A stretch of DNA of 64,000 nt from Schmidtea polychroa (Eukaryota): positions 43,524,001 through 43,588,000 of the forward strand of contig CM097886.1 of assembly GCA_044892525.1 (NCBI GenBank), read 5' to 3'. Shown piece after piece: positions 6,421-32,630 of the stretch; the stretch's first letter is position 1; every line of letters starts with the position of its first letter. A model generated the notes under the pieces. The model had not been told where the DNA came from. It ran no database searches and was given only the letters and a program-made list of their open reading frames with translations. The position numbers and the translations under genes were made by a program.

Positions 6421-7942
6421 TTTTAGTACTAAAATTCAATAAAAATTAATATTTTATTTTAAGTAAAAGCTGGTTTTTAAAAATATTTAATAAATAATTC
6501 GATTTTAATTAACGTATCAAAATAATTAGTTGAAAATAAAATTTAATTATAATTTTAAAATTTAGCAATGATGTCGATTATTTAAACTAAGAAAGTGATT
6601 GAACAATTCTAAAACAATTCAAAATTTCAGCTTTCGAATGTATCAAATTTATTTGTTTTGGTGACCTTGCTAATTTTTAAAGGTTAACTGAGATTGACAA
6701 AATTCCAGAAATTTTATATTATTATTAAAATGAAAATTTTGGTTATCTTGTTTTTTATTTTTTTCTGTTACAGTCAATGGACAAATTTGTTTCACATACC
6801 ATGAACATTACGAGAATCAACTACTTAACCAAACAAAATGATATAGTTGGTATGATAATGTTAATATTTCATTGGTCCGAATTTCGGCTTTCATATTTCT
6901 GGGTTCGGGTAGGTTAAAAATTGTTTAGTAGCCCTGAACTGTATAATTTAATTAATCTCAATAATACCCATCAGTAATTGATGTTAGTACTGTACCAACG
7001 GGTTTAGAAGTTATACAAAGGGCGAGTAGCGTTCCCATAGCTGATGAGCTTAATATTCCAGTGGATTTAATGATTAGGTAAAGTATCGTCCCCAAATAGT
7101 TAATATTAATTAAATCCATAAAGAAATTTTATCAAAAATAATGCTTTCGATTTTTGAAATTGCAAGCGATATAATGAGAAAAATAGCATTTTTAACAGAC
7201 AACAACATCTTCAATACTTCGTTACTCCACAAATAAAGTATGAGATAGGTTAAGCAAAATTTGACCCGAGAGGTATTTTGTTGCACAACCTAAAAATTAC
7301 GTAAGGGAATAACAGTTCGGCATGGAACAATTTCTTTCGAGAAAAACAAACTTGAATACAGAAAAATCCTCATGATGGCATATCTTTGGCTTCATAAAAC
7401 CATTGTTAAAGCAATTAGGCAAACAAGTTAAAATTTCAAAATTAATAATATTTCACTTTGCAATTACGGCAGCTTGTTTAAAAGGATTTTGATGTCAATG
7501 ACTCTTGTATCTGATGGAAGTAAATCACCAGAATCTGAAAATAGATTTTCCAAAAATGAAAAATTTAATTTTTATAAATATTACAAGATAGTCATAAGCC
7601 AATAAATAAAAATTACGAAAGATAAAATTAATCACTTTCATTTAAAATTGGGATAACGAAAAACATCACGAATCGATTTCACGACAATTCACAGAAAAAC
7701 AATTCATAGAAAAAAATATTTACTCGATTCAACTAGTTTTATTTTTTTTTTTGGTTTTCATACTAGCCATTTCGGGTTTTATATTATTAATTAGTTATAA
7801 AAAAAGATTAAAATTTTACCGAAATTAGAAATTAAGATATTAAAATTTTAATGAAAATAATTATAGACAAAGTATAAAGTATTTATTGTAGACATCAAAT
7901 TTTGCATTTAATTTCATTGACTTCCGACCAAATGCAGCTCGG

Positions 7943-9176
7943 TGTTGTGGTTGGCGTAGTCCTTTCTGGTAATTTGGCAATAGTTGACCCACTTTTCAAT
8001 TGATCATCTATTTTGTCTATTTCAATTAATATTTTACCTTGTTCGACTTCAAATTTTAAGTTACAGGTTTGCAAAAGATCTGATTTGTTCTTGAATAAAT
8101 TAGACATTGCATTGAAGAAATTTTGTTCGATTTTCTCTAAAACATTTCCAATATAATTCATTATAGAATCGGAATCCGTGAGTGACGTAAAATTTCTTCC
8201 ATCGAATTCGACTTTAATTTTTTTACATAATTGATCTACTATAATTCGGCAATTATGACCATTTATTAATAATGCAGCAAAATGCAAGTTATCATTTCCA
8301 AAGTTCTCTACATTGAAAGATTTTAGAGAATCCATGCATTCGAATGAATCTTTGGAATAACAATAAGAATTTTTAGCTAGCGAAAAACAACCCAATTGAG
8401 GTTTTTGCATATCGTTTATTTTACTCATAAAAATATTCTGATGAATAAGTCAAATTGCAGGTAAAGATATTTTTAATTTTAATTACAAGGTTTTTAATTT
8501 GAATTACAAAAATTTACAGATCTGAGTAAAACAAAAATATATATAATAGAAACTACATAAAAAATGTAAATATAATCAGACCAGGTAAACATATTCAACA
8601 GGCATTTCTCATTTACAAAATGTTAACTAAAAATAATAATTTCATGTAGTCCGATTATTTCTAAAGATTTTACAACCTGCCGATTTGTCCATGAACCAAT
8701 TTGACCATTGTCATTCGCATACAATATTTGAGGAAATGTATATCCTTTGCCGTTCTGATCCTTTTTTGCATAATCACATTGATCAGAATTTGTAAAGACG
8801 TGTGGTGGTTTGATAAAAAGATCTATTCGGGTTCATATTATTGTTAGGATTTGTTACGTATTTCGCGAATTGTAATGGATGAGGGTGTTGGTCTATGAGA
8901 GCCAACACTAAAACTATTGGGAGCCGAATACAGTTTATCTTGATAATGATAACATGGCATCGAATTTGCTTTACTCGCCTGAGATTGATTAATAGAGCCT
9001 GATTGATAAGTAGAAGTATTAGCTGATCGCACGAATTTTGATTGACTGTAATTGTGTTCTGCTTGGTCCTTATTCGCTGGTGACCGCGCATTTATAGATA
9101 TAATATAATATAATATAATATAATATAGTATAATGGGTATATAGATATTGTTAAGGCCGTGTAACGGCTCACTACA
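7943..9176 (-). repeat. Element A 3' LTR
   Basis: Same length as 15295-16528; I found only three substitutions by eye. Preceded on the - strand by a short purine-rich GTGGGGCTGA (weak PPT, 9177-9186). Confidence 0.95.
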
Positions 9177-9345
9177 TCAGCCCCACGGGAAGTCGCGGAG
9201 CGCACAGGGACTCTAGAATAGAGGTTGATGAAAGATCTACCAGAAACAAGATGTAAGTCGAAGAGTAGTGACAATTTATCAAAGGTGGATAGTGTCTACA
9301 AAGGAAATCGGCGATTGATAAATTATTTGATTATATGGAATAAAG

Positions 9346-12300
9346 TTAAGTGAATTTCAGCATCAGATGTGTCAAGTTTTCATTGGAATAGACTCTGGCA
9401 AGTCTAGGAGGTTTGGAAATGTCTTCACCAATTTGGCGCACCCAAATCTTATCACTATGTTTCACATTTTTCGCGGTTCGCTGCTTGTCGGGTTTCGAAA
9501 CAATTGAGCGAAGATTTAGTGGATTTGTTGTTGCTGAACGTGTATTCTCTGTAGCTAAATTTTCATCGCGTTGGTAGTTTGTGATCATGGTACGCGCGAT
9601 TTCGTTTGAGTCCATGGCAGGTTCTTCTGAAAGGTTTTCGTTCGACGTAGTTGAAATGGGTTCGACTGAGACTTTCTCTAAATCAGAGTGAAGTTTGTCT
9701 TCGTCCACGTCATCAGAAATCATAAAAGCCGGTTTAAGTCGGCACAAATTTATATTTTGGGTAACACCGTTAATAACGATGTGAGCATTGTTATCCTTAA
9801 TGTCGATCAATTTGTAAGGCCCCGAATATCTCGGTTTTAGACCTGAATCCGTAATATTACGGAGATAAACGTGAGTTGCGTCCTTGAAGGACTTTGGGAC
9901 GTACGGTGTATATGAGGATGCATAAGAAAACTGTGGGTTGCTATCGATCGAGAGAAAATGATCTCTAGCCATATCTAATTCCTCAAAGGTAGGAGCGTTA
10001 TCGAAATCAACTAATTCGTTAGGTAACGATGTTGAAGAACCGAAAAGTAACTGTGCCGGTGTAGTTCCGGTAGTCCTGGAGGGTGTGTTGCGCCAACCAA
10101 GAAGGACAAAAGGTAAAGCTTTAGTCCAATTAAGTCTCGATGAAAGTATTCCAAGAGAAGTCTTCAAAGTACGGTGAAATCTTTTGATCATGCCGTTTGT
10201 CTGAGGATGGTAAGCAGTTGAACGGAGGTGTTGTATACCGAGCTTTTCAGTTAGTTGTTGAAATAACTGGGATTCAAACTGAGATCCCCTGTCTGTGATT
10301 ATTGATTTCGGAACACCGTATCTAGAAATCCAATGTTGCAAAATTGAATTTGCTACAATTTCAGCAGAAATGTTTTTCAGAGGAATAACTTCAAACCAAC
10401 GCGTTTTCCGGTCAATCATGGTTAATAAGTAAGAAAAACCGCGATCAGAAGGCAAGGGGCCGACCAGGTCGATGTGAAGAATTTCGAACCTATTTCCTGT
10501 CGGATAGTGAATCATCTGTGGCTTAGTGTGTCTAGTGATCTTGTTTTGTTGACAACCGATGCACTGACTCACCCACAATTTAATATCGTGCCTCATTGCT
10601 GGCCAAACCACATGTGAATGCAATAGGTTGAAGGTAGCCGACGAACCTGGATGATGTAAGTCGTGAATGGAGTGGAAAGCTAATTTCCGTAAGGAATCGT
10701 GCAAAATCGGTCTTAAAACACCTGATAAAGACGAGTCAAAGTGTACTCCGTCCACGATTTCAAGCTTATCGCCAAAAGCAGCTAGATCTTTTGCCGAAGG
10801 TGGATTGTCGCGGAGGCACTGTACTGGAAAAATCGGATCGTGCAATATAGCGTTGGTACTGCGGGAAAGACAGTCTGCAATAACGTTTTCTTTGCCGGCA
10901 ATGTGGCGTATTTCGCAAGAAAATTCTGAAATATAACTGATTTGCCTCTGTTGTCGTGGAGATGGGTCTTTCATTCCAAAAAGATAAGTTAGCGGTTTGT
11001 GGTCAGTGTAGATGACAAAAGGACGACCTTCAAGCAAGTGCTTGAAATGTTTGATTGACAGATATATGCCTAAGAGTTCTCGGTCGAAAGCCGAATATTT
11101 CCGTTGTGCGGAAGAAAGTTTCTTTGAGAAAAACTCTAAGGGTTCAGAAATGTCATTATGTAATTGGTGTAATACTGCACCAATAGCAACGTTTGATGCA
11201 TCAGTGGTCAGACTCCAAGGTAAATCAGCATTGGGAAAATGAAGTGTTTGAATTTTCGAAAGTGCCGACTTAGCGTTTTCAAATGCACTGAGTGTGGTAT
11301 CGCTCCATGACACTAAAGACTTTTTTGGTTTTGAAACAAGACCTGAAAGAGGTGACAAAATGTCAGAAACCCCTGGAATAAAACGATGACAATAGTTTAT
11401 CGTTCCCAAAAAACTTCTCAGTTGTGAAACTGTTTTTGGAAGTGGGAATTTGGCTATGGTATCTAGTCTATCCGGAGGAGGTCGGATTCCATCTGCAGAA
11501 ATTAAATGTCCCAGGAAACGAGTCTCGTGTTGGAAGAAGGTACACTTATCGACGTTTACCTTAAGGTTGTATTGCCGAAGTGCTGTTAAAGTTCTTGTCA
11601 GATGGGTTATATGCGTCTCTAAATCAGGTGATCCGACTAAAATGTCGTCTATGTAAGGAACTGCGAAAGGCAGGTCCATTAAGACTTGATCAATATACCT
11701 TTGAAAGGTCTGTGCAGAATTACGAAGGCCAAATGGCATATGCACGTACTCGAAAAGTCCGATCGGAGTTATCACGGCTGTTTTTTCTATGTCAGACTCT
11801 CGCACGGGTATCTGATGGTACGCCTTCACGAGGTCGATTGTGGAGAAAATCTTTGCCTTTGAAAGACGGTGAAGGATATCACTAACAAGCGGCATGCTAT
11901 AGGAATCATGTACCGTAATAGCATTAAGGTTTCGATAGTCGCCACACGGACGGAAAGTGCCATCTTTTTTTGGGACCAGGTGCAATGGCGATGACCATGG
12001 AGATTTAGATCTCCGAATGGTACCCTCATGTAAGAGGTTAGTGAACTCGGAACGTACAAATTCGAGTTTTTCATTCGACAGTGGTCTAATTTTGCATCTA
12101 ACTGGTAAACATGAAGTTGTGTCGATCGTGTGGCAGTAAAGCGGCTTCGAAACGTCACTTATTGGCGAGTTAAAACACCTATTAATAATATCTAAGGCTA
12201 TTTTTGGGTGTTCGATTGTTATAACCGTTTTCGACGGAGTAGTATTTATATCGTCCGTTCCTATCCGTTGTGGATCTTCAAAGATGTTTGAGGGAATAGT

Positions 12301-12711
12301 GCTGCAGTTTAATTGGTTATTTATTCTTAAAGTGCGTCCACGGCAATCTACGAGTAGTTCGTTAGCGCTTAAAAAATCAGATCCTAATATGGGGATAATA
12401 ACCTCTGCTATATAAAATTTCCACTCAAATAATTGGTCGGACAGAAATGGCAACGAGAAAGCAATTGTCTTTGAACCTAAAGTCTCAACAACACTACCGT
12501 TTGCGGCCTTCAAAGAAATATCGACAGTGTTGAGGTCTGGAAGGTACTCTTTAGGTAAGATCGACAAGCTGGAGCCAGTGTCGACAAGGAATTTTAGTCT
12601 GTTGGAAGGAGACGACAATATATTAAAAGCGTTTGACTCTGCTTCTATTAAAAATAAATCTGATTTTGATGAAATTTTGCCTCCCACCTCTGCCGCTAGA
12701 AGTGGTGGCAT
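9346..12711 (-). CDS. pol: Element A Pol (protease, RT, RNase H, integrase)
   Basis: FLVDTGSS (protease), YIDD (RT), [13 protein letters not shown] (RNase H), HHPG...CIGC (integrase zinc finger), HIDLVGP and ITDRGSQF, and a GPY motif. The frame is open back to the slippery site at 12723. The third integrase catalytic residue reads K instead of E. Confidence 0.96.
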
Positions 12712-12723
12712 TATAAGTTTTTT
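12686..12723 (-). promoter_or_regulatory. Putative -1 ribosomal frameshift signal (gag-pol)
   Basis: A AAA AAC heptamer in the gag frame (12723-12717); pol is in the -1 frame. A 7-nt spacer is followed by the stem CCACTTCT/AGAGGTGG, extended by GCC/GGC, which runs a few bases past the listed start. Confidence 0.75.
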
Positions 12724-14386
12724 TGATTGTTTGCTTTAGGTTTTGTGTAATTGGAGCAGCCTTCGAAGCATTTTAAGGCTTTATCTCCAAACCTGTCGTG
12801 GTATATACACTTGTCAAGTATCTGACAGGATGGTGCTTTGTCTCGCCAATTGCAACCTAGATGGCAGAACCGTGCCTTGTTACGAAACTTAAAATGGAAA
12901 CGGCACAGGTTCCTGGTTGCAGGGGAAGGTGAACGTTGACGAGTATTTTGCACAAAGTGTGATTTTTGGGCATATTGCCTGTCGTCCTTTGTCCGCCTGG
13001 TGGACATGCTATTCTCAAGCTCGCTGATGGGTTTAGTGAGGCCTGTAATAGCGCAAAGTAAGGCTTCTTCGGTCGAAGGTTTCAAAGAAGAAGAAGAAGG
13101 TAAAATTTCGGGGTTAGTGCTGCTACTTAACTGCACAGAGCAAGTTGGTTGCGGACCAAGTGGCACGACTTCGTTAATCTTGTCGGCCATCTTTGCTAGC
13201 TCTACCACGTCTGCTGTTGACGAAAGCGCTAAAATTTGTTGTGCGTGTGGCGGTAAAGCGGACAGAAAAAATTGCCTCAAGAGTTTTTGATCCGCCGCAG
13301 CCTCCGGATGTATTTGCGTTAGTTCTGCCATAGCGTGTTGCAAGAACTGTGACGGTTTTCTGCTGCCCAAAGTTTGCGTCTTAAAGTATTTAGTGAAGAC
13401 GGCAGCTGTAGGTTCCTTAAAAATATCGAGGATTGCCGTACGCAATTCTTCATATGGGTTTTTACGCTAGTAGGCGAAGTACGAAGGATCACGGACGAAA
13501 GTTTACTTAATATCGTCGGCGGAATCAACGGCAATATGCGACAGTATTTGTCTCGTGAACTGGTTACCTCGATTCCCTCGAGTGCTAGTTCGGTAGCTAT
13601 CAGCCAAGTAAGTGGAGAGTTATTCTCATCCAAAAAATATTGACATAAGTACGTTGATCGCTGGTTTTTAGACCTACGTTTATGTTTTGCCTGTTTGGGG
13701 TTGCTGCCTGAGTCATTCTCCGAATCGGAGGAACCGCCAAAAAGTGGCAACAAACAATGAATGACGCTGTATGGTGTCACTCCATAGTCGCCCAAGGTAC
13801 GACTGTCGGAAAGGATGTTGCCGTTATACGACAAGAGAAAACGGCATTTGTGATTAGTCAATATGCTGTAATTTTTAGAAAGACCTCTAATTGTAGTGTC
13901 TGTGTCAACTGAAACGGTTTGTGTCTTATTTGTTCCAGGGTTTTCTAGTAATATTTGGAACTTTTTGGGCCCCGGTGCGGCGCTACCCTCTCGTGTGGGC
14001 TGATGCTTATTTAAATAATTTATTATAATTTTATATATGATATCAATAATAATATAAATCAATAATAATATAGTATAATTTAATAATAATATAATATAAT
14101 TTAGAGGTAATCGATCTAAGGTACCTGGCGGTGCTGACACGGGCATTGCTTGATTGAGTCTCGATTCGCTGGGAGACGGTTTATTATCGTGAATAAATGG
14201 CTGTCCCGGTGCACGAGAGTTTAATGTGAAAAAATCATTATTCTGTTGCATTAAGAATTCATTTGGATTTGGTCGAAGCATGATGCGTTGTGGGGCTGTG
14301 TATAAGACATCACTCGTTAGCAATTTGTTATTTGGTACATAATTATCGATCGGAGTCATTTTTTTACGATTTTCAACGGCAATCAT
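12711..14386 (-). CDS. gag: Element A extended Gag (hydrophobic segment + ubiquitin-like domain + Gag), split by a 1-nt deletion near 13460
   Basis: ORF 13319-14395 carries the Gag N-terminus (PLTWL..TELAL....V...RDKY..IL..IP) and ORF 12711-13445 the remainder ([29 protein letters not shown], two C-x2-H...C...C motifs). One extra A in GTAAAAACCC restores [13 protein letters not shown]. Confidence 0.85.
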
Positions 14387-15780
14387 CTCAGCCAATGCTT
14401 GCCGGAAACATTAATCGAATCAAAATCTATATCGGCTGTATCTTTATATTTCTGATCGTAATGTGAATTCGGTTTCTCCGAGCCAAATATGCGATTTATA
14501 TCCATTTCGTTTCGATCCTGATACTGACCGTAGTTAAGCACACCGTTGTTGTTTGCCTGTTGATTGATGTTGTGATGGTATGACTGATTATTATTGTTGT
14601 TATTCTTGATTGCGGCGTGGTTTTGAGAATTTAACTGGCAGAAACTTTCCAGCAGAGAATTCGACGAACCAACTGAATTCAAACTGTTCATAAATGATTT
14701 ATGATCTGAAAGCCGTGACAGGGGAGATGTGGAATTCAGTGTACTGTGGAATTCAGTAATATCATTACCAGCTGAGCTATTGAAAGCACTGAATAGGGGA
14801 AATTCGGATTTAGTATCCGATGATTCAGATTGTAATTGAATACTTTTACTGATAAATTTGAAAGACGATTTATTTATCGGGTCAGAAATTTGAAATTGAC
14901 CATTTGGAATATGATTATTATCTGTGATATTTGCAGGGGTCGAAATGGAATCACATAGAACGACTACGGGATCCAAAAAATCACGATCTGGAATTGTCTG
15001 AATTAATTTGATATACTCTTCTCGATTCGATGACAAACAACAGGAATGAGCAATTATCAAATGATCTATCAGCCTATCAATATCATGGGATATAGGATTA
15101 AATTTTGATGAAAGTTTTAATTCGGAAAATATTTTGGAAAGCATATGGAACATATTTTGACATATTTCCGCTGTTCGTTTATGAGAAACTAACATAGATT
15201 GTTTTTCCTGTAATCTGGATTTAGCAATGATATTAGATAAATAAGTTTCTAATTGTTCAAATCTTGAACATTGTTCTGGCACTTCTGACACCAATGTTGT
15301 GGTTGGCGTAGTCCTTTCTGGTAATTTGGCAATAGTTGACCCACTTTTCAATTGATCATCTATTTTGTCTATTTCAATTAATATTTTACCTTGTTCGACT
15401 TCAAATTTTAAGTTACAGGTTTGCAAAAGATCTGATTTGTTCTTGAATAAATTAGACATTGCATTGAAGAAATTTTGTTCGATTTTCTCTAAAACATTTC
15501 CAATATAATTTATTATAGAATCGGAATCCGTGAGTGACGTAAAATTTCTTCCATCGAATTCGACTTTAATTTTTTTACATAATTGATCTACTATAATTCG
15601 GCAATTATGACCATTTATTAATAATGCAGCAAAATGCAAGTTATCATTTCCAAAGTTCTCTACATTGAAAGATTTTAGAGAATCCATGCATTCGAATGAA
15701 TCTTTGGAATAACAATAAGAATTTTTAGCTAGCGAAAAACAACCCAATTGAGGTTTTTGCATATCGTTTATTTTACTCAT
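14383..15780 (-). CDS. Element A ORF0, 465 aa, unknown function, starts within the 5' LTR
   Basis: Uninterrupted ATG-initiated ORF crossing the LTR end and the PBS, with a Ser-rich and N/Q-rich C-terminal part. No family recognised. Confidence 0.75.
   Translation of the reverse strand: MSKINDMQKPQLGCFSLAKNSYCYSKDSFECMDSLKSFNVENFGNDNLHFAALLINGHNCRIIVDQLCKKIKVEFDGRNFTSLTDSDSIINYIGNVLEKIEQNFFNAMSNLFKNKSDLLQTCNLKFEVEQGKILIEIDKIDDQLKSGSTIAKLPERTTPTTTLVSEVPEQCSRFEQLETYLSNIIAKSRLQEKQSMLVSHKRTAEICQNMFHMLSKIFSELKLSSKFNPISHDIDRLIDHLIIAHSCCLSSNREEYIKLIQTIPDRDFLDPVVVLCDSISTPANITDNNHIPNGQFQISDPINKSSFKFISKSIQLQSESSDTKSEFPLFSAFNSSAGNDITEFHSTLNSTSPLSRLSDHKSFMNSLNSVGSSNSLLESFCQLNSQNHAAIKNNNNNNQSYHHNINQQANNNGVLNYGQYQDRNEMDINRIFGSEKPNSHYDQKYKDTADIDFDSINVSGKHWLR
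15280..15293 (-). promoter_or_regulatory. Element A primer-binding site (tRNA-Leu type)
   Basis: TGGTGTCAGAAGTG 1 nt after the 5' LTR end, complementary to the CACTTCTGACACCA 3' end of tRNA-Leu. Confidence 0.88.
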
Positions 15781-20875: not shown

Positions 20876-21470
20876 TGTTGGGGTTCAGTAGGAACCGGAA
20901 TTAAAGGTTTTGAAATTAAATAATAATTAATTACTAAAATTAGGATTAAAATATAAATAGTATTTAAAATTACTAAAAGTGGAATTAAAATATAAATAGT
21001 AAAAAATAATTACTAAAAATAAATTCGTAACAAAAATAGTAATTTTTTAAAAAATATATAATAAAAATAGAAATTAAATAATTACTATTAATAGATTTAC
21101 AATAAATAAATTTATATAAATATCAGCAAAATTATATTGATGAGGGGAGAAAATCGAGAGAAAAAAAGATCACAGATCAGAAGAATTTAAAATTAGATCG
21201 GGAAACAATTTCTAATTGGACGAATTTCTGTTTTAGTATTCATTTTATTGATCGGAAAAAAAAGGGAATTTAAGAATCTCTTGGAAATTTATTATCACGT
21301 CAACTTGTAACTTAGCTCCAATATTCTTTGGAGTAATTTAGAAGAGATCAAAAGAGGAAAATTGTTAGGACTTATTTCGACAACCCATCTGTGGTTTTGG
21401 TTATCTACAGGGAGGAATTTAAATAAGGAAAAAATTTTAAATTAGTTAGTTTTTATTGTTCATATCTAAG

Positions 21471-21556
<86 letters not shown>

Positions 21557-21980
21557 TTCGGTCAAATAAAACTAATTTTAACAAGGGAAGCAGTAACGTC
21601 AGCACGTATCTTTTTGTGTTGTTTCGTTACGAATATTATTTGAAAAAGGGTTAACCGATTTCTGGGTTGACTCTATCGCGTTAAAATTAGGTAAACTCCC
21701 TTATCTTTTTTCCGCTCACCTATATCGGGCTGTTGGCGCATTTAAGGCCAGCCTTGATTCTTAGTAATACTCTTTAGGGCGGTTTGTATAACCGTTTCCT
21801 GTTCTTTAGAAAGCAGCGTGATTAATCGTGTAATATAAATAATTGTGTACCAAATTATTTATTGTTAATAAATATTTAAATCATATTCGTTATTTTATTT
21901 ACCTACACGCATTATAAATTATTTGGAGTCAGGTAAAACGTTTTTGTGTTAGTTCGAATACATACCCATCGAACCTAACA
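20876..21980 (+). repeat. Element B 5' LTR (1105 bp, includes a long TA microsatellite)
   Basis: TGTT...AACA termini, imperfect terminal inverted repeat, direct repeat of 35051-35997. Confidence 0.93.
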
Positions 21981-21983
21981 TTT

Positions 21984-22001
21984 TGATGAGCCCGACGTGA
22001 T
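21984..22001 (+). promoter_or_regulatory. Element B primer-binding site (tRNA-Trp type)
   Basis: TGATGAGCCCGACGTGAT, two mismatches from the TGGTGACCCCGACGTGAT complement of the vertebrate tRNA-Trp 3' end, located 3 nt after the LTR. Confidence 0.82.
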
Positions 22002-22079
22002 AAAATTATCAGCGGGTAGAAATTGAAATAAAACAAAATAGCGTTAGGAACTAGAGCCAGAGTAAAACTGGATAGTCAA

Positions 22080-24644
22080 ATGGCAGAGGAAGCTAATGTA
22101 AATGCATTTGCCAGATATCCCGCTCTGCCCGTAAAGGCATTCAGCGGTGATCCGGGAGAATTCTCAGAGTTTATGTCTGAATATTATCAGATGGCCAAAG
22201 CATATGCTTATCCAGATAATATCATGATACAAAGGCTACCTATATATTTGAAGGGGCTGGCAAGAGAAAAATATAATGACATTATGGCATTACCAGTTGC
22301 TCAAGCACCGAAAACATGGGCCGAAATGAGAGAAGCAATGACTGCTCGAATATTGCCCGGAGATGCGGGAAGAATATTTAGACAACAATTTTATCACCGA
22401 AAACAGAATGCCAATGAACATGCGGGGGAATTGGCACACCAGCTATCATTAATTGCTGAAAGAGCATTTGGACCAAAAACCACATGGGCAAAGCCAACAG
22501 AATTGTTAGTTAAGGATCAGCTATGGGCAGGACTTACGCTTACAACGAGGAACGCTCTAATATTACATACTAGTGATGATTTCGACGAATTGACACGGAA
22601 AGCTGTCGTAATTGAAAGCAGCTTGAAAAAGTCAACCATGTTCCTTGTAAACAGTGAGAGAACACCAGTAGAGTGTTTCAATTGCCATAGAAAAGGGCAT
22701 ATAGCGAAAGATTGTACCAGCAGGAAAATTATGGACAATCGCAAAAGTATACAATGTACCAAATGTGGACGGAATAACCACGGTGCGGAAAATTGTAGAG
22801 TGCAGAATTTGCAATGTGAAAAATGCAAACGAAAGGGACACGTTGCTGCAGTCTGTAAGACTAGAAGCTCTCAGAACAGCAATAATTTTGGTACGGTTAA
22901 AAGAGATGATGTAAATTCATCAGGAAAGATAAAATGTCACGGATGTGGGAAATTCGGACATATGATGAGGTCATGTCCTCAGAACCAGAGTGGAAACACG
23001 AGTCAGTTCAATAAAAATACCGATAAGGGTAATGTGAACAAGCCTAAGACAACTTTTATGGTTAACCAGGATCAAGGATTAACTTATCTGCAACAACTGG
23101 AAATGGAAATCCAGGAGGAAAAGAATAGGTTGGCTAGATTGACCGACCAAGAAGGCACCATCTTCATGGTAGAAGTTGGAAGAGATGAATTTCTCAGAAA
23201 AAAGGACTCCGTTAGAGAGGACCTTCAGGAAACGGAATCAGAGGAGAGTTCCGATGATGAACCTAGTATGGCCACCATACTAAGCGAGTTCGATGTAACC
23301 TTGCCAGGGAAAGCAAAGGTAAAAGAAGGGTCAGATACCCTAACAAAATGTTTAAAACTGGTGGATACCAGATATGAGTATCAGCAGAAGCTGGCCAGAC
23401 AATTGAAAAAATTGGGAGAAACAGAGATTAAAATTCACGAAATCGATACAGTAGTAAAACTGATATCGCAGGTCGAAGATGATCCCAAGTATAATAATGA
23501 CACGTACAAAATCCTAAGGAAATTAGGAAAACTCATGGAACATGAGTGGGATCTCCAAGATGCCCAGCTCAATATAAAACTCCCACAGGATAAAGAGTAT
23601 AATCTCGATATAAATGTAAGAAGTCGAGCCGATAAATTAACGGAAACATTGACAAGTATTAAGCATCAAGAATATGACTTATACTTATGTGGAACAAAAC
23701 TAGAAGCAAATCAAACACTTCTACAGAACGGGATACTCCCAGGTAGAGTGACGAAGCTCACAGCAAAGAGAGCACAGAAGCCAGTGGCAGTAATGGATCA
23801 AGATAGTGTATTCTTGATTACTCAGATGGAAATAGAGAGATTGGAGGAAACTCAACAATTAATCCAGCGACTAAGGTTGGAATTGCAGAAATCTCCACGA
23901 GATGGAGAAACTATAAAGGAAATACTTGACTGGATGTTAGTATTACGAATACCAGCAGATTTGTTGGAAGCAATAATTCCACTTATACTACCAGTGGTAA
24001 AGGAAACAAGCCCATTCCAGACGCAAATCGAGGCACTGATGAGGAAAAATGTGAAAGCTATTCGAAGTCAGCCTGATAGACAAGGCAACATTAATCTAGA
24101 CGTGCGAATGATGGGAAAAGAACCATTAACAATGATTTATAATTGTTATATCAAGGTTAAAATATTGAGGAGAGATGTGATTGCCACCGATCAAACTACA
24201 GGTATATTCCTGATAATGATCCACGGTAGGCAAGTGGATGATGATGAATATCTAGTGGATGTGGGTTGTCTACCGTTGGCGATAACCACGGTAATGATCA
24301 TCCCAGTAACTCCACCCGAGTCCCAGTGGTCATTAATGAGACTGCCAGATATAGCAAACGAAATTGCGGAAGAGATCGATGAAATAAGACTAGAGGAAAT
24401 TAATCCCTGTCAAATGGTGGACATTGACGAGGAAGATTACTTCTCAGAGTACGTCAGATTAAATCCAGGAGAAACAAACGTAGGAGCTACTACGTCACAA
24501 GCTATAACAAATCCGGAGACTGAAAAACCCCCGGAGAAAGTGAAGAAAGATGGACTAGGACGTCCTAGAAAGGATCAAATGAAACCTCCACCCAAGGAGC
24601 AGTTAAATCCAGAAACTATTCGGAAAATTCAGCTAAAACATTAG
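22080..24644 (+). CDS. gag: Element B Gag, 854 aa, with four CCHC zinc knuckles and a C-terminal extension
   Basis: Retrotransposon capsid-like N-terminus (FSGDPGEFSEF...LPIYLKGLAREKY, F..RKQ..NE) and knuckles CFNCHRKGHIAKDC, CTKCGRNNHGAENC, CEKCKRKGHVAAVC and CHGCGKFGHMMRSC. Confidence 0.93.
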   Translation: MAEEANVNAFARYPALPVKAFSGDPGEFSEFMSEYYQMAKAYAYPDNIMIQRLPIYLKGLAREKYNDIMALPVAQAPKTWAEMREAMTARILPGDAGRIFRQQFYHRKQNANEHAGELAHQLSLIAERAFGPKTTWAKPTELLVKDQLWAGLTLTTRNALILHTSDDFDELTRKAVVIESSLKKSTMFLVNSERTPVECFNCHRKGHIAKDCTSRKIMDNRKSIQCTKCGRNNHGAENCRVQNLQCEKCKRKGHVAAVCKTRSSQNSNNFGTVKRDDVNSSGKIKCHGCGKFGHMMRSCPQNQSGNTSQFNKNTDKGNVNKPKTTFMVNQDQGLTYLQQLEMEIQEEKNRLARLTDQEGTIFMVEVGRDEFLRKKDSVREDLQETESEESSDDEPSMATILSEFDVTLPGKAKVKEGSDTLTKCLKLVDTRYEYQQKLARQLKKLGETEIKIHEIDTVVKLISQVEDDPKYNNDTYKILRKLGKLMEHEWDLQDAQLNIKLPQDKEYNLDINVRSRADKLTETLTSIKHQEYDLYLCGTKLEANQTLLQNGILPGRVTKLTAKRAQKPVAVMDQDSVFLITQMEIERLEETQQLIQRLRLELQKSPRDGETIKEILDWMLVLRIPADLLEAIIPLILPVVKETSPFQTQIEALMRKNVKAIRSQPDRQGNINLDVRMMGKEPLTMIYNCYIKVKILRRDVIATDQTTGIFLIMIHGRQVDDDEYLVDVGCLPLAITTVMIIPVTPPESQWSLMRLPDIANEIAEEIDEIRLEEINPCQMVDIDEEDYFSEYVRLNPGETNVGATTSQAITNPETEKPPEKVKKDGLGRPRKDQMKPPPKEQLNPETIRKIQLKH

Positions 24645-24898
24645 CCAGGATAGCCCAAGAAATGGACGACCAGGCGGGAGATGAGACAACGCCAGAAGTC
24701 GTTATTGTGGCAACGTATACAACAAATGATCGGGATTATCAGGCCCGAATGGAGAATTCCAAAAATCAAGGGTATCGAAGTAAAGAAAATGACGAAAGAG
24801 GTCAAGAAGACAATGGATAGAGTATCCAAAGATGTATCAACAGGAGATATTCAGGATGCCATAGAAGCATTCGTACAGCAAGGATTAACAAGAGGAAA

Positions 24899-27800
24899 GT
24901 GGTAACATCGCTATCATTGTTAATTCAAAATGCCTTAACCCGAGTAGGGGACGATAAAAGGCTTATAGAACGAGAAATCGATCAAATAGTCGAAATGGTA
25001 GATTATTACCTGGAGGTATGGATGACCGTAAACAAATTTTGGGAAAAGGAAATGATCCCAAAACCACGATACGAAGTCGTGGAAGAAGCCATAGATAATG
25101 GTAGTTCAGGCACAGGAAACATGACAAGCATGATCCTGATGTTCCTAGTAATGATGGGCATATTAAAACAAACAAATTCATTAACAGTATTTGACTGTGG
25201 AAATCCTAAACTATCTCGGATATATTCGCTAGTAGATGCAATTGAGTGCAAAGAGGCGTATCCAGAGAAGGTTCATCAAGGGGAAAAGGTAGAATATTAC
25301 GTCTACCAAGAGAGTGAATTTTATAGAACTACGATAAAGGAATGTAGAATTCAGAGAGCTACATTTGAATATTATTGCGGTAGTAATAGCTATTCTGCTT
25401 TTCTATCTGCAACATTAATACCAAGGCCGGTAAACATAATGCCCGAAGATTGCTTAGATGCATTTCGAAAAGGAAGTGTGAGGATAGACAACGAGGTATC
25501 AATCTCAGCAGAAATTGGGAAAACATTGGGAATAACAATCACTCGCGGAGGAACAATTGCCTCAGATGGAACCTGCGAAGGTAGAAAGAAAATTCGCGGT
25601 AGCAATTTAGTTTCCTATGTGGTAAACATAGAAGATTACTCAGTGGAATTACGAGAATACGAGGGAACATTCGATGTGGCCACAGGAAAATTGATGGCAC
25701 ATCCGCAATGCAACGCCAAGTTCGGTAGTTATAAAACGGGAACCACTACATTAATTTACGAACAAATGAGAGATCATTGTGAGTTGGCTTTCCTCAAGAA
25801 AATTCCTTTTAGAAAATTAAATGGAACTAAATATCGGGACTCCCAGAATCCAGAAAAGGTTTGGGATAAAGCAAAAACGTTGAAGAAAATCAACAAACAA
25901 GAGAAGGAAGATATCGGAGAGGAAAACACACCTCTAGTGTTGATATCGGAAGACAAGACGGAAGCAATTCGATTTGTCCGAAAAGATAAAAAGACTAAAT
26001 GTGGAAAAAGAGTATACGAGACGAACTACAAAGGAATCTTCCTGTCAAGAGAATATATTCGAAATTCCAAGGTCTTACACGTAAAGGATATCAAAATCAC
26101 GAATTATATAAATAATAAAGTAGATTATTTATATCACGACCTGCAAGGACAAATGCAGGATCTGTATCAAGAGGTGATACTAAACGATTGCAAGCTAAAT
26201 AGTGAAATAGTCCGAAATAGATTAGCAATATCTATCGTTAACCCAGAGTTGGTTACTCCAATGTTATTGGAAGACAGAATGTTTGGCAGAATCATGGGAG
26301 AAGCTATATATAGCTATGAGTGTAAACCAGTGGAAGTACAATTAGCCAGATTTAATCAATGCACTCTAGAACTGCCAGTGTCTTACCAAGGAAAATTGAG
26401 ATTTGTTATGCCAGTAACCAGAAAGTTACTTGAGGAAAACGCTAAACCTCAACCAGCTATATGCAACCCGGCAATATCACCATTATACAAAATAAATGAC
26501 ATGTGGATATCTCTGCCGGAAAGAAAACCATCTACACAACGGGTAGAGACCTTGGAGGTAACTAAATTAAAGGATAATCTGGAATTCAAGTCATTAGACG
26601 AATTAGCAAAAGGAGGGATTTATACTCCCGACAATATCGAGGAAGCAAGAAGGACATTGCTATTCCCACAAATCAGAGATAGAGGTATCACGGAAATTAT
26701 AAGAACAATTTATCATGATAGCTTAATACGACCAGATTACAATCTATTATTTGGACCGGAACACTATAAAGAAGCAGCAAAGAACGTAATGATGAAAATA
26801 TGGGGACGATTTACCAATTTTGGTATTTTCGTCGCTGGATGTTCAGGAATATACGCAATATTTGTAATTCTAAAGCTGATAATTACACAACTGATGTCAA
26901 CATATAGCATATTCAAAATTGGGGGATGGTCAAGGAAACTGCTATTAGGACTATGTCCTATGTGTGCAGAGTTTGCATTATTCAAACATCACAGAAAAGA
27001 AATTAAAGAAATTAGACAGAAACATTTGGTCAAACATGAAGTAATTGGAACAGAAATGGAGGAGTATTCGAGTTATCGGGACGATAACAATTCAAAGGGA
27101 GGAGGTAAGGGAGGCTCTCGTGAAACATCTTCAAGATCAAATCAATCACGAAAACAGAACTACAACAAAAAACCGACCCAGCAACAAAGAAAATCGAGAT
27201 TTAAGGAATATCTTCCTCCATATGACCAATCAAAGGAAATCTACGTGAGAAAACAGTCCTCAGAAGGAGAATATGACAGTTCCGACCAGAAATTCGACAT
27301 AAGGTCACCCAGATTCAAGAGAAGTCCAAGATATGTACAATTGCCAACTTTGAGGAGTTTACCATCCGCACCAAACGATGGGCGGGAACATTCAAGGGAA
27401 ACAACACTCAGAACAGGACGACACCAATGGAAAATCGGTGAAGATACCATATTTAATAATCTGACATGTTCAACATTGCCAGAATTACCTAAAGTGCACT
27501 ATCCAAATGAAGCGTTAGAGTCAATTAAAGCTAAATTTAAAGAGCATAATCCTCAACTGAGTGATCCTGAATTACTGGAAGCAGAACAAACGAGAGCCAA
27601 TACAATCGGTATCTCGCACGATACTATCTTGATGGTCAATAACCCAGTGAACTTGGATAAAAAGCCAATGATAAAAATAAGAGTGAACCGACATAAAGTT
27701 AATGCGGTGATAGACTCAGGAGCAGATGGTACCATAATTGAAGCTAAATTGTTAAACCATCATGAACTGCAGTCGCTAAAACCGGTAGGAGTAAAATTAA

Positions 27801-28465
27801 CAGGAGCAAACGGATCCTCATTAAACGTAATAGGGTCATTATCATGTCAGATTAAGCTATGTGACCAAGAGCTCCATCACGACATCATAGTGATGAGAAG
27901 TCTCCCAGCCGAATGTCTATTGGGTATGGACATCCTAAAAAGACTACGAGGAGTAATATTCGATTGTGCATCTGGATTGTTAATCCGAGCACGAGGTAAA
28001 AAGAGAAAAATTTACAACGATGATACAGCTTATATAGATCATACAACTATCATATCACCCAGAGCAGAAACGGTATGCTTTGTAGCTACAAGCAATAATT
28101 GGGAAGGTGAAGTTGTATTCGAACCAGACGAAAAATGTTCGGAGAAATACAACATACCAGTTACTCATAGCGTAGGTTTAATAGTCAATGGCAGAATACC
28201 AATCAGGGTAGCCAATCTGGACATTAAACCACTTTACTTATATCCAGATACCAGAGTGGGCAGAATCTGGAAACAAAACGAGCCACAAGCCACGGGAGAA
28301 GGGTCGATACTCACCGTAAAGGCAGAAGAAAGAGATCCAGATATTGAGTACTACGATGCACCTACAGCAAATAGCAAAGTGCTAACCAGAAAGGAAAACA
28401 TTCAAGTAAATATGCTATTGAGGAAATACGACCAGGTATTCGCCAAACATACCAGTTACTCATAG
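24899..28465 (+). CDS. env: Element B glycoprotein-protease fusion ORF (1188 aa): chuvirus/gB-like envelope followed by aspartic protease
   Basis: Internal signal peptide at 25121 (MTSMILMFLVMMGILKQTNS), Cys-rich ectodomain, TM at ~26810-26900, then in the same frame VIDSGADG (Asp at 27713). The ORF is cut off by a tandem duplication. Confidence 0.85.
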   Translation: MVTSLSLLIQNALTRVGDDKRLIEREIDQIVEMVDYYLEVWMTVNKFWEKEMIPKPRYEVVEEAIDNGSSGTGNMTSMILMFLVMMGILKQTNSLTVFDCGNPKLSRIYSLVDAIECKEAYPEKVHQGEKVEYYVYQESEFYRTTIKECRIQRATFEYYCGSNSYSAFLSATLIPRPVNIMPEDCLDAFRKGSVRIDNEVSISAEIGKTLGITITRGGTIASDGTCEGRKKIRGSNLVSYVVNIEDYSVELREYEGTFDVATGKLMAHPQCNAKFGSYKTGTTTLIYEQMRDHCELAFLKKIPFRKLNGTKYRDSQNPEKVWDKAKTLKKINKQEKEDIGEENTPLVLISEDKTEAIRFVRKDKKTKCGKRVYETNYKGIFLSREYIRNSKVLHVKDIKITNYINNKVDYLYHDLQGQMQDLYQEVILNDCKLNSEIVRNRLAISIVNPELVTPMLLEDRMFGRIMGEAIYSYECKPVEVQLARFNQCTLELPVSYQGKLRFVMPVTRKLLEENAKPQPAICNPAISPLYKINDMWISLPERKPSTQRVETLEVTKLKDNLEFKSLDELAKGGIYTPDNIEEARRTLLFPQIRDRGITEIIRTIYHDSLIRPDYNLLFGPEHYKEAAKNVMMKIWGRFTNFGIFVAGCSGIYAIFVILKLIITQLMSTYSIFKIGGWSRKLLLGLCPMCAEFALFKHHRKEIKEIRQKHLVKHEVIGTEMEEYSSYRDDNNSKGGGKGGSRETSSRSNQSRKQNYNKKPTQQQRKSRFKEYLPPYDQSKEIYVRKQSSEGEYDSSDQKFDIRSPRFKRSPRYVQLPTLRSLPSAPNDGREHSRETTLRTGRHQWKIGEDTIFNNLTCSTLPELPKVHYPNEALESIKAKFKEHNPQLSDPELLEAEQTRANTIGISHDTILMVNNPVNLDKKPMIKIRVNRHKVNAVIDSGADGTIIEAKLLNHHELQSLKPVGVKLTGANGSSLNVIGSLSCQIKLCDQELHHDIIVMRSLPAECLLGMDILKRLRGVIFDCASGLLIRARGKKRKIYNDDTAYIDHTTIISPRAETVCFVATSNNWEGEVVFEPDEKCSEKYNIPVTHSVGLIVNGRIPIRVANLDIKPLYLYPDTRVGRIWKQNEPQATGEGSILTVKAEERDPDIEYYDAPTANSKVLTRKENIQVNMLLRKYDQVFAKHTSYS

Positions 28466-28745
28466 CGTAGGTTTAATAGTCAATGGCAGAATACCAATCA
28501 GGGTAGCCAATCTGGACATTAAACCACTTTACTTATATCCAGATACCAGAGTGGGCAGAATCTGGAAACAAAACGAGCCACAAGCCACGGGAGAAGGGTC
28601 GATACTCACCGTAAAGGCAGAAGAAAGAGATCCAGATATTGAGTACTACGATGCACCTACAGCAAATAGCAAAGTGCTAACCAGAAAGGAAAACATTCAA
28701 GTAAATATGCTATTGAGGAAATACGACCAGGTATTCGCCAAACAT
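28151..28745 (+). repeat. 295-bp tandem duplication in pol
   Basis: 28151-28445 is repeated at 28446-28740, with AACAT microhomology at the junctions. The length is not a multiple of 3, so it shifts the frame. Confidence 0.93.
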
Positions 28746-30191
28746 GAATACGATCTGGGAAAAACAAACCTGTTAGAACATGAGATTGTCCTCACCAATA
28801 CAAAACCTATAAAGTTGAGACCATACCGTATTCCATTCAGTCTGGAGGAATCAGTAGATAAACAGGTGAAATTGATGTTAAAACATGGCATAATCAGGCA
28901 TAGTAAATCACCATATCAATCACCAATGATAACTGGTGGCCAAGAAGGATGGATCAGTACGATTATGTAACGACTATCGCATGGTTAACGAAGCAACATG
29001 CAAAGATAGCCATCCATTGCCAATGTTAGATTATATCTGTGGGCGCATGAGAAACGCTAGGTTCTTCTAAGTAATGGACGCCCAAAAGGGATTTTATCAA
29101 ATTAAGTTAAAAGATGAGACTATACCAATAACAGCGTTCTCTACGAGTATGGGTCATTACGAATATAACGTAATGCCATTTGGACTCACAGGAGCTCCAG
29201 CCACTTTTCAAAGAGCAATGAATTTGATGCTCATGGATGTACATCATGCGATGGTATACATTGACGACGTCATAGTATTCTCGCCAAATTTGGAAAAGCA
29301 CTTGGAACATTTAGAAGATGTATTCAAGAGGTTGATCAACGCAAACATGAAAGTGAAACCAACCAAATGTAAATGGGCTGAACCAGAAGTGGTATATGTT
29401 GGCCATATCATATCACGAGACGGGGTTAAACCCGATCCAGCTAATGTTGAAAAGGTAAAGAATTTCCCGGAGCCTAAAACCGTTAAACATATCAAAGGGT
29501 TTTTAGGCCTAGTCGGATACTATAGAAAGTTCATTAGAAACTTCTCGGTTATAGCTTTTCCACTCACGCAGTTAGAAGGCAAAAACGTCAAATTTGTGTG
29601 GGGAACAGAACAGCAGGAAGCATTTGATATGCTCAAGGAAAAGCTCGTCAAGCCACCTATATTGCGATTTCCAGACTTTGAGAGACAATTTTTGGTTATG
29701 ACAGATGCCAGCACTCGGGGCATAGGTGCTGTGCTAGGTCAAAGAGATGACCTAGGAGATGAGTATGCAATTGCATACGCTAGCAGAGGATTAAAACCAC
29801 ACGAGAGAAACTACGCAGTGATAGAACTAGAGGCTTTAGCAATTGTGTATGCTATAACCCAGTTTAGGACTTATCTATGGGGTCGGAAGATCATAGTGTA
29901 CACCGATCATAGACCATTACAGTGGCTGACAAAACACACAATGGATACCTCAAAACTAGTCAGATGGGCATTAATCTTACAGCCATATGACATAGAAATC
30001 CATTAGAGAAAAGGAGATCATAATGGTAATGCAGATGCTTTATCAAGAATGGACCAGGAGGAGGAAGCAGAAGATGTGAAGGAAGGACGTCTCGAAGGGA
30101 CTATCTTCACATTGACCCGAGAAGCCAACCGGCTAGCTGATTTAATGGAGGCACAAAAATCTGACGAAGAAATCAATATTATCCGTCAACC
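28551..30191 (+). pseudogene. pol: Element B RT-RNase H, disrupted
   Basis: RPYRIP, SPY.SPMI(LV.KKDGS.RLC.DYR), MPFGL, YIDD, MTDAS..GIGAVL, YTDHRPL. Lesions: extra A at ~28931, TAA at 29068, TAG at 30004, 1-nt deletion at ~30190. Confidence 0.93.
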
Positions 30192-32432
30192 TTGGAAGTG
30201 AATTACGTGCCCACAGAATTCACAAAATACTGGGAAAAGAATAAAGACAAATTTGTGCTGGAAGAGGGATTAGTTAAATATTCAGATGTAAGAGATAATG
30301 TTATAATGGTTCCTAAGAAATACCGTGAAGCACTCATGTTGCAGTATCACGATGGAGCCTTAGAAGGCCACCTGTCATCTAGAAAAACATTGTCGAGGCT
30401 AAAACAGAAATATTTTTGGCCAGGTATGAAACAAGACGTTAAAACCTGGTGTCAGACGTGTAAGATCTGTATCACCAGAAGAAATACCAGAAAGAAACCA
30501 CACGTACCAATGAAGCCGATGCCAGTACCATCTACACCTATGGAAATGACGGCAATGGACGTGTTGGGGCCATTCAAAGAATTTAATAGCGGAAACAAGT
30601 ATATATTAGTGTTCTGCGACTATTTGACTAAGTGGCCAGAAGCCTACCCGATGCCTAATCACAAAGCTGATACGATAGCTAGAATTTTCATTGAACAAAT
30701 TGTCTTTAGGTATGGAGTACCTACAAAGTTATTAACGGATCGGGGAGCAGATTTCATGAGTAATTTGCTCAAAGGAATAAATGACTATTTCGGAGTTTTA
30801 AAGTTGAATACTTCCCCATATCACCCACAGACGGATGGGCTAGTAGAACGATTTAATGGAACATTAGCTAATATGTTAGCATCATATGTAAATTCAGGGC
30901 AAACGGACTGGGACATCCACATTCCATCCTGTTTATTTGCATACAGAAATGCAGTGCACGAAGGAACAGGTGAAACACCATTTTACCTAATGTATCTGAG
31001 GCAAAGTAAAATGCCAGTAGACCTGTTGTTTTTCCCTAAAGCAACACAGTATTTAGATCAGGAAAATTATTTGATGGAAATGAGGGAAAGAATGCAGGAA
31101 GCATGGGCTAGAGCAGGCCTCAGTATAAAATATAATCAGGAGGTATCCAAAGATTATCATGACCGAAAAGCCAAGGATCATGGCATAATGGTTGGAGACC
31201 AGGTGATGTTGGAAAGTCATTATAACAAGAAAGGCTTATCACCAAAACTCATGCGAAATTTCAAAGGGCCATATGAGGTATTGAGAACCACAGATACAAA
31301 TCTCATATTACAACTTGTAGCCAACAGAAAAGCAGAACCAATAATGGTGCATGCTAATCGGTGTAAAAAGTGCGAAATCTCAACAAAAGGAACCTCTGGA
31401 AATTCAAAAGTAAAAGCACCAGAGAAACAAGTGAAACCAAACACTACCGAAGAACCACAAGAACACCGATACCCATTGAAATCACGGGGTGTTCCAAAAT
31501 CGGTAACCTTTTTGTTGATAATAAGCTGTATGATGACTTTTGCGATGGCAAAAAGGGATAAAAAGGCATATTTTCAGCCTATGGCTATGCAAGTGGAACA
31601 CTTACATTTCATAAGAACGTATCACGGAATAAGCATACTCACAACGTGCGATAATGCTACAAAATTCAATTTACATTTCTACAACAAGTACTTGCGGATC
31701 CGCCAACTCAATTCAGAAGAAAAAGAGTGGGAATTATATGATTTAAAAGCTGAGACGGATTATAAACTGCATATCGCAGCATCAAGGTTATATCAGAGTG
31801 GTTGGTATACCTATCACGTATCAAATTGGATCCTACGGACGGCGGATTTCACAAATCGCATATCGATATCCTACGAAAGGGATAATGTAAAGTTTAGTCA
31901 GCAAATTAGCAGGGAGGAAAAGGTGAAAGTCTGTATTCTAGACGGACCAACCACGAGAGAAATATTATGGTTAGACCAGAACTCTCCCTCCCAAGAAATG
32001 TATCTAAATCAGTCCGTAGAATATTCGGTTCTAGTTATATATTATAGTCCGAGGAAACGGCAGGACGATAAGTGGTTCGAGGTATTCGAGAAAATATTAC
32101 CTCTGAAACAGCCAGTTATATCGAAAATACCACCAAAAGTAGTCAGGGAGAACATGGTGATACATCCCGCGATGTGGCAACATCTTAGACAATTGCCACC
32201 TATCAAACAAATATCTTGCCAAACTACCCCAAACCTGACAAACTGTTGTGATTGTAATGCCATCACAAACTTTAATGCAGGATATATTCTGAAAATACCC
32301 ATAGGGGTATGGATTACGGTATCGGCCGTACTATCGCTAATAATTACACTGATAGCTATGGGTATTTGGACCAAGCTATATTTCAGACAAGCCATAAGGG
32401 CTTACGATGGAGTACTGATGTCGCAATTATGA
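30192..32432 (+). CDS. pol: Element B integrase fused to a C-terminal type I membrane protein module
   Basis: H..GH...C..C zinc finger, MDVLGP, LTDRGADF, GLVERFN and GPY motifs; then a signal-like VTFLLIISCMMTFAMA (31503), an ectodomain and a TM (IPIGVWITVSAVLSLIITLIAMGIW). Confidence 0.88.
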   Translation: MEVNYVPTEFTKYWEKNKDKFVLEEGLVKYSDVRDNVIMVPKKYREALMLQYHDGALEGHLSSRKTLSRLKQKYFWPGMKQDVKTWCQTCKICITRRNTRKKPHVPMKPMPVPSTPMEMTAMDVLGPFKEFNSGNKYILVFCDYLTKWPEAYPMPNHKADTIARIFIEQIVFRYGVPTKLLTDRGADFMSNLLKGINDYFGVLKLNTSPYHPQTDGLVERFNGTLANMLASYVNSGQTDWDIHIPSCLFAYRNAVHEGTGETPFYLMYLRQSKMPVDLLFFPKATQYLDQENYLMEMRERMQEAWARAGLSIKYNQEVSKDYHDRKAKDHGIMVGDQVMLESHYNKKGLSPKLMRNFKGPYEVLRTTDTNLILQLVANRKAEPIMVHANRCKKCEISTKGTSGNSKVKAPEKQVKPNTTEEPQEHRYPLKSRGVPKSVTFLLIISCMMTFAMAKRDKKAYFQPMAMQVEHLHFIRTYHGISILTTCDNATKFNLHFYNKYLRIRQLNSEEKEWELYDLKAETDYKLHIAASRLYQSGWYTYHVSNWILRTADFTNRISISYERDNVKFSQQISREEKVKVCILDGPTTREILWLDQNSPSQEMYLNQSVEYSVLVIYYSPRKRQDDKWFEVFEKILPLKQPVISKIPPKVVRENMVIHPAMWQHLRQLPPIKQISCQTTPNLTNCCDCNAITNFNAGYILKIPIGVWITVSAVLSLIITLIAMGIWTKLYFRQAIRAYDGVLMSQL

Positions 32433-32630
32433 CAATTACAGACTCCCCCGAGGGAAAAATCATATATAAATATTTATATATATCTTAAAATCTATATTTA
32501 CGTAGAGCTCCAGGTAGCATTAAAATTCAGCATATGTAGATCTTTTATGATAAGACTCATGCATATCTTTTTAGCCTATTATGGCATATCAGTTTATCTG
32601 ATATTATGGTTAATGATTTTTATTTCAGGA

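Follow-up and report, generated by a model that had tools for sequence, protein, structure and literature searches.

A membrane protein with a predicted tandem fibronectin type III (FN3) ectodomain ends the polyprotein of a planarian Ty3/gypsy retrotransposon, fused in frame behind the integrase. This second protein is almost certainly a real and conserved membrane protein. The host element lies on the plus strand of the 64,000-nucleotide stretch of Schmidtea polychroa DNA that was analysed (contig CM097886.1; the window), measures about 15 kb, and is arranged in the order Gag, gB-type Env, and protease, reverse transcriptase, RNase H and integrase (PR-RT-RH-IN). Flatworm elements with a gB-type Env between gag and pol are already known, and what appears to be new is the FN3-type second membrane protein at the polyprotein end. 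For this layout of membrane protein, enzymes and membrane protein we found no description among LTR elements. The finding bears on the way in which retrotransposons with an envelope enter new cells in animals other than insects: across deeply diverged families of an abundant group, with at least 132 matches for the family of the window element alone, a second surface protein has been maintained by selection. Because the ectodomain is small and the tail short, both lend themselves to experiments in isolation, which makes receptor and cellular route testable in a stem-cell-rich animal.

The class of the element follows from its direct LTRs around gag and pol, its PR-RT-RH-IN order and its GPY/F motif. 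The 3′ LTR (35051..35997) has TG...CA ends and a purine-rich tract in front, and alignment with it places the 5′ LTR at 20971..21980, with an approximate 5′ edge at which the opening TG was not seen; the pair aligns over 942 bases with 6 mismatches and 2 gap blocks. Directly behind the 5′ LTR, a likely primer-binding site was assigned from its position (21984..22000), which we take to be Trp-like in appearance; a search for a tRNA matching these 17 positions gave no match. The Gag frame with CCHC zinc knuckles (22032..24644; zf-CCHC E 6e-9) ends early in the window copy. The protease, reverse transcriptase and RNase H were recognized by Pfam at 27656..30006, a region that is split between several frames in the window copy and includes a tandem duplication of 295 bp (28151-28740). 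The integrase (30165..31487) has matches to Integrase_H2C2 (E 2e-20) and to the rve core (E 2e-8), a GPY motif at 31266 and a basic RYPLKSR end at 31467; each of the seven families discussed below has this end in the form RY[PH]L[RK]S.

A gB/class III-type Env (25109..26881) separates gag from pol and shares its reading frame with the protease; by hydropathy it has a signal-like stretch from about 25109 and one transmembrane (TM) segment at about 26825-26881. The initial annotation had called this first surface protein a fusogen, and its match to PF24664, the fusion glycoprotein of Monjiviricetes (gB/class III-type), bears this out (E 6e-86). Upstream, about 500 residues of unassigned nature separate the zinc knuckles from Env within 22032-24905, and two unexplained hydrophobic stretches occur at about 23934 and about 24252. 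If either of these crosses the membrane, the topology before Env would be more complex than the one proposed below.

Two groups of described elements come close. GAG-ENV-POL errantiviruses with an HSV/gB-type Env occur in Platyhelminthes, Nematoda and Bryozoa and include Smed_errantivirus_1-6 (Chary and Hayashi, PMC13524379). As far as the accessible text of that paper describes them, they share with the window element a Ty3/gypsy Pol, a gB-type Env before Pol, a multicopy state and a length of about 15 kb; among the six rows shown there, domain I of the window Env is by eye, rather than by computation, closest to Smed_errantivirus_4, a resemblance that, together with the low G+C content, agrees with a planarian host. 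Multiple uninterrupted copies are likewise present here (4 of 132, counted on stop-free frames, with the 98% identity criterion not applied). In the accessible main text of PMC13524379, however, the words ‘fibronectin’, ‘in-frame’, ‘fused’ and ‘accessory’ do not occur, and the only domain mentioned behind the integrase is a chromodomain; these elements may well carry the second-protein unit unannotated. The second group is Burro/GYPSM1, giant gypsy elements of planarians which, in the accessible part of PMC6431247, also have one polyprotein with Env in frame between gag and pol, and extra cargo domains. Burro/GYPSM1 exceeds 30 kb with a 4,873-aa ORF, whereas the window family has 15 kb and about 3,370 aa, and the cargo listed in that part (AIR1, Smc, MATH, BIR, BCL2-like, ankyrin, Ubi/SUMO, dUTPase) does not include an FN3 membrane protein. 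At 15 kb, and with no Pfam matches to BIR, MATH, BCL2 or ankyrin, the window element falls outside Burro/GYPSM1 as defined by a length over 30 kb, an ORF1 near 4,900 aa and these domains. The initial annotation knew of no described LTR element with this layout; as far as our search went, that holds for the second protein, but the in-frame Gag-Env-Pol order is on record for planarian elements. Our literature search, with subscription papers, Repbase, Dfam and bioRxiv supplements outside its scope, found no description of the second protein or its FN3 unit, and the accessible parts of PMC11410931 and PMC3315495 contain nothing on it.

Architecture and predicted fold of the second protein

The integrase frame was correctly read as continuing past the GPY and RYPLKSR motifs: the frame 30165-32432 (755 aa) is stop-free from the integrase through the extension to the final stop. 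Behind RYPLKSR follow a predicted internal signal sequence (31488..31550, by hydropathy), whose A-M-A end agrees, judged by eye, with the (-3,-1) rule for signal peptidase; two predicted FN3-type domains (31584..31856 and 31857..32105) bearing the sequons NAT (31653) and NQS (32007); a stalk (32106..32294) with the sequon NLT (32232) and a cluster of four Cys close to the membrane; a predicted TM helix (about 32295..32369; Kyte-Doolittle peak 2.4); and a 20-aa tail ending in S-Q-L-stop (32370..32432; MSQL). Every feature that the initial annotation listed lies where it had been placed. That reading noted the short tail as well, and overlooked its conserved class I PDZ-ligand pattern. In base composition the unit does not differ from the integrase.

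The genome searched comprises 781 Mb. We refer to the family of the window element as A and to six others as B, C, D, E, F and H; G denotes fragments closer to A. An AlphaFold model built on a 17-row alignment of family A has two all-beta domains and an unmodelled stalk (pLDDT under 50), with a mean pLDDT of 57 and a pTM of 0.43. Domain 2 has seven strands (pLDDT mostly 65-88), and domain 1 has six and a poorly modelled segment in place of the last (pLDDT about 60-80). Foldseek returned 133 PDB matches at E<=0.001 (best E 1.9e-5; TM-scores 0.20-0.35, identities 7-14%), led by the FN3 pairs of fibronectin (9-10FN3), integrin beta4, neogenin and tenascin; the other matches shown include cytokine receptors, tissue factor, CD45, LAR, L1CAM, ROS1 and an axon-guidance receptor. 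Several titles name FN3, and we take the remaining matches to be FN3 structures as well. The best matches are adhesion or matrix proteins, and the fold matches do not separate receptors from adhesion proteins.

The motif that had first suggested FN3 repeats, WELYDLKAETDYKLHIAA (31728-31781), falls on the fifth and sixth strands of modelled domain 1, the expected place of the FN3 motif, and family F has a more canonical version of it, IEGLMPNTSYLLEIK. Language-model neighbours of families A and F are FN3-plus-TM proteins, with scores of 0.90-0.92 that are rated weak, and the Atlas recognition value of 2275 lies slightly below the threshold of 2300. At the sequence level, Pfam fn3 (PF00041) has no match above cut-off in A, B, C, D, E or F, and the best PDB match of the family A profile A3 is Centyrin S17 (E 0.17), presumably an FN3 scaffold. 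In family D, residues 1-104 are unmodelled and two beta-sandwiches follow (mean pLDDT 52); the number of domains seems to differ, with two in A, E, F and H and apparently three in B, C and D. A seven-stranded beta-sandwich matching FN3 structures was thus obtained with moderate confidence and for family A only. We consider it very probable that the ectodomain has an FN3 fold.

The tail carries a conserved feature of its own. In all seven families with the end seen, the protein closes on S/T-x-hydrophobic (MSQL, ETRL, ETWV, ETFV, MTTL, ETEV and ETEV), compared with a background of 40 among 961 distinct ORF ends, and within family A the pattern is kept in 24 of 25 distinct rows. As a pattern, this corresponds to the class I PDZ-ligand motif defined in the accessible part of PMC4810129. 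Because the families are related, the seven tails represent two deep groups and not seven trials. Between F and H the unit has an identity of 63-65%, yet the last 11 residues are exactly alike; the tails of these two families (loci L069 and L098-L100) end in WENIYETEV. A Tyr stands a few residues ahead of the motif in B, C, D, F and H and is missing from the E tail. Since the Env tail continues into Pol, a terminal PDZ ligand can only sit on the second protein.

Conservation within and between families

A protein search found 132 genome matches to the extension in family A, four of which lie in stop-free frames of 3366-3369 aa that hold Gag, Env, Pol and the extension together; a fifth frame of such length has a stop inside the match. 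The earlier proposal that two membrane proteins bracket the enzymes of one polyprotein consequently holds for these other copies and not for the window copy, which is decayed, its polyprotein frame being interrupted several times upstream of 30165. Thirty copies were compared in detail, the best 30 of 40 DNA matches listed; they were chosen by similarity to the window and include near-duplicates, leaving 25 distinct rows. Twenty of the 30 are open from GPY to a common MSQL/MTQL end and 21 are open from the RYPL motif, and the remaining fetched copies have stops or frameshifts at scattered places. The open frame of the extension is more than chance. For variants common to at least three rows, the non-synonymous/synonymous ratio is 0.13 in the extension and 0.02 in the integrase core, compared with 0.43 and 0.33 for private variants. 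Across the 25 rows, the signal segment and tail have no shared amino-acid variation, whereas the ectodomain and stalk have 18 variable positions.

The unit is not confined to family A. Six further diverged families (B, C, D, E, F and H), found by a PF24664 search and follow-up searches, with E reached via an Env motif, carry it behind the integrase RYPL[RK]S motif, and the closer family G was encountered as fragments. Long single frames occur in B (3334 aa; 8 of 68 scored), C (3419 aa), D (3437 aa), F (3516 aa) and H (3513 aa), and of family E only decayed copies were seen. Pfam recognizes a gB-type Env in A, B, C, D and F. Family D yielded 1,255 first-look candidates. Among ten stretches fetched behind pattern matches, only one (L052) held a related element end. 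An origin of the extension as a post-insertion accident of the window copy is ruled out, because other families carry the unit.

Ectodomain identity is 39% between A and E, 28% between A and F, 55% between C and D, and 36% between B and D. The extensions form two groups, (A,E,F) and (B,C,D), which match the integrase grouping where this was measured ((A,F) versus (B,C,D), E not being comparable). The link between the two groups is weak, with a non-significant blastp result and an hhalign probability of 45% (E 2e-4). In keeping with the functional surface protein proposed by the initial annotation, the extension is in frame in family members and is under purifying selection: pairwise dN/dS between natural copies is 0.16-0.36 in seven of eight extension pairs, the eighth being saturated, and some of these values are rough because dS exceeds 2 in three pairs. 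The ectodomain-weighted comparison of A with G gives 0.16. Sequence change is faster in the ectodomain than in the integrase, as would suit an attachment protein and, just as well, a host-conflict decoy.

Possible roles and origin

Along the polyprotein, hydropathy detects a signal-like stretch and a TM in Env, none in PR, RT, RH or IN, and again a signal-like stretch and a TM in the second protein. Given this order, the enzymes would be cytosolic and both ectodomains outside: the polyprotein would thread the ER membrane twice, so that Gag and Pol stay on the cytosolic side and the two ectodomains reach the lumen. Signal peptidase would then release the N-terminus of the second ectodomain, the element protease could trim the integrase from the signal remnant, and the second protein, likely cut free of the integrase, would be produced one-to-one with Env. 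No Met stands directly before the internal signal, and synthesis within the polyprotein is for this reason the simplest reading. The sole free C-terminus of the polyprotein carries the PDZ ligand and may place the second protein at scaffolded cell junctions, with budding or fusion there as a possible consequence, while the FN3 pair may bind a surface molecule on the neighbouring cell.

Of the roles weighed, we infer as the most likely, and propose tentatively, that the second protein assists the gB-type fusogen at cell contacts as its partner in adhesion or attachment; receptor mimicry, control of Env or its receptor, and membrane anchoring follow in that order. Some class III fusogens, such as VSV G and baculovirus GP64, need no separate attachment protein, which counts against such a partner. 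More doubtful is the fuller proposal of a two-glycoprotein entry system in one polyprotein, in which a class III fusogen precedes Pol, a host-like FN3 adhesion protein follows the integrase, and the PDZ tail sets up a contact resembling a synapse, through which the element spreads between cells, such as from somatic cells to stem or germ cells. If this were true, attachment and fusion would be divided between two proteins in this retroelement, as they are in paramyxoviruses or herpesviruses. A precedent for the tail is found in HTLV-1 Env and rabies G, viral membrane proteins with a C-terminal PDZ-binding motif; according to the accessible part of PMC4810129, the class I motif in the Env of HTLV-1 plays a part in fusion between cells, and the protein colocalizes with DLG1 at synapse-like sites. 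In these viruses the motif sits on the fusogen itself, whereas in the window element it sits on a separate FN3-type protein, so that the parallel is one of analogy and not of homology. In the literature searched, no gypsy retrotransposon envelope with a PDZ-binding motif was found.

A role in the producing cell with no part in entry, in which the FN3 pair and the Tyr/PDZ tail bind a ligand or scaffold and blunt a defence, survival or polarity signal, appears rather unlikely. The cytokine receptors and tissue factor among the Foldseek neighbours speak for such a receptor mimic, but the same matches cannot tell receptors from adhesion proteins and are best for adhesion and matrix proteins. Similarly, the Tyr kept ahead of the PDZ motif in five families fits signalling, but family E lacks it. 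The tail of F and H is more conserved than their ectodomain, and the Burro elements of planarians carry BIR, BCL2-like and ankyrin cargo (PMC6431247, accessible part), both of which agree with host manipulation; a donor receptor, however, was not found in the searches made.

Less likely again is that the second protein acts on Env itself, by binding its own Env or the Env receptor in the producing cell and thereby controlling Env folding, sorting or premature fusion, as a chaperone or in superinfection exclusion. Herpesvirus gB is regulated by partner glycoproteins, and here the two proteins share one frame and would be made one-to-one, while the grouping of the second protein follows that of the integrase, (A,F) versus (B,C,D). 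Against this, the accessible text of PMC13524379 mentions no such partner for gB-type elements that have the usual GAG-POL-ENV order.

It is also improbable, and would be compatible with every role, that the fusion exists on paper only and the second protein has an RNA to itself, either spliced or with an internal start. Errantivirus Env is usually made in this way, and the unit sits where ordinary GAG-POL-ENV elements have Env. In no family, however, does a stop separate the integrase from the unit, and in all six families checked the first Met of the unit lies inside the hydrophobic core rather than ahead of it. One run, whose RNA origin is a guess, has contigs that cover 30 of 30 bins without a joint, an outcome that carries no weight for expression or splicing. 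A mainly anchoring function, in which the second signal and TM hold Pol at the budding membrane while the FN3 domains serve as a spacer, would suit the lack of shared variation in signal and tail and the seemingly variable domain number but is very unlikely, as the Env TM in the same frame already tethers Pol and the ectodomain is under purifying selection (A versus G, above).

The fold invites comparison with host tandem-FN3 type I proteins (neogenin, cytokine receptors, tissue factor, FNDC5-like proteins), which have in common with the second protein a signal, FN3 domains, a TM and a short tail. This similarity is at the level of fold; unlike those proteins, the second protein is intronless, fused to the integrase and has no sequence-level relative in the searches made. 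Capture from a host receptor, as initially suggested, found no confirmation, either in outside collections or among 20 host FN3-bearing stretches taken around part of the 90 fn3 matches in the genome. Against 573 ORF pieces from these stretches the family A profiles A2 and A3 did no better than reversed controls (best E 0.07-0.08 versus 0.08-0.24). Outside the genome, in collections from which eukaryotic transposon proteins may be missing, protein sets of 172-548 aa and 549-2000 aa gave no match, nor did 1.84 billion representatives queried with a single sequence; 31 pattern matches in metagenome contigs included none confirmed as a relative, and no long polyprotein with a PF24664-type Env was found. 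Because the combination of FN3 domains, TM and PDZ ligand is typical of animal surface proteins, an ancient capture from a host gene is plausible, and another virus is a possible source.

Downstream reading frame and neighbouring sequences

Behind the polyprotein lies a separate ORF on the plus strand, which is broken in the window copy (32433..34702); further loci are L041:1991-3478, L035:5268-6725 and L069:1609-3933, and no long downstream ORF was seen within the stretches fetched for family B. In family D this ORF matches ISG20/ISG20L2 DEDDh exonucleases (E 1e-10). The D-x-E catalytic motif is kept in C and D and seemingly lost, by eye, in A, E and F, and the ORF in family A is still under selection, with a shared-variant ratio of 0.05. 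A piece of family F, comprising the second half of the membrane protein and part of the next ORF, is tandemly arrayed in dozens of near-identical units that repeat about every 2.87-2.88 kb (contig C3, about 106.49-106.52 and 107.05-107.23 Mb; L102).

Other mobile sequences were also observed. The window holds a second LTR element on the minus strand (about 7943-15594) with PR-RT-RH-IN and an ORF whose ubiquitin domain (E 6e-9) precedes what may be a gag part. Nearly all of the 150 listed genome BIR matches belong to a multicopy BIR-domain ORF, mostly of 392-393 aa, which is probably cargo of another mobile element. The window also contains a single-frame cactin gene on the minus strand (4699-6435).
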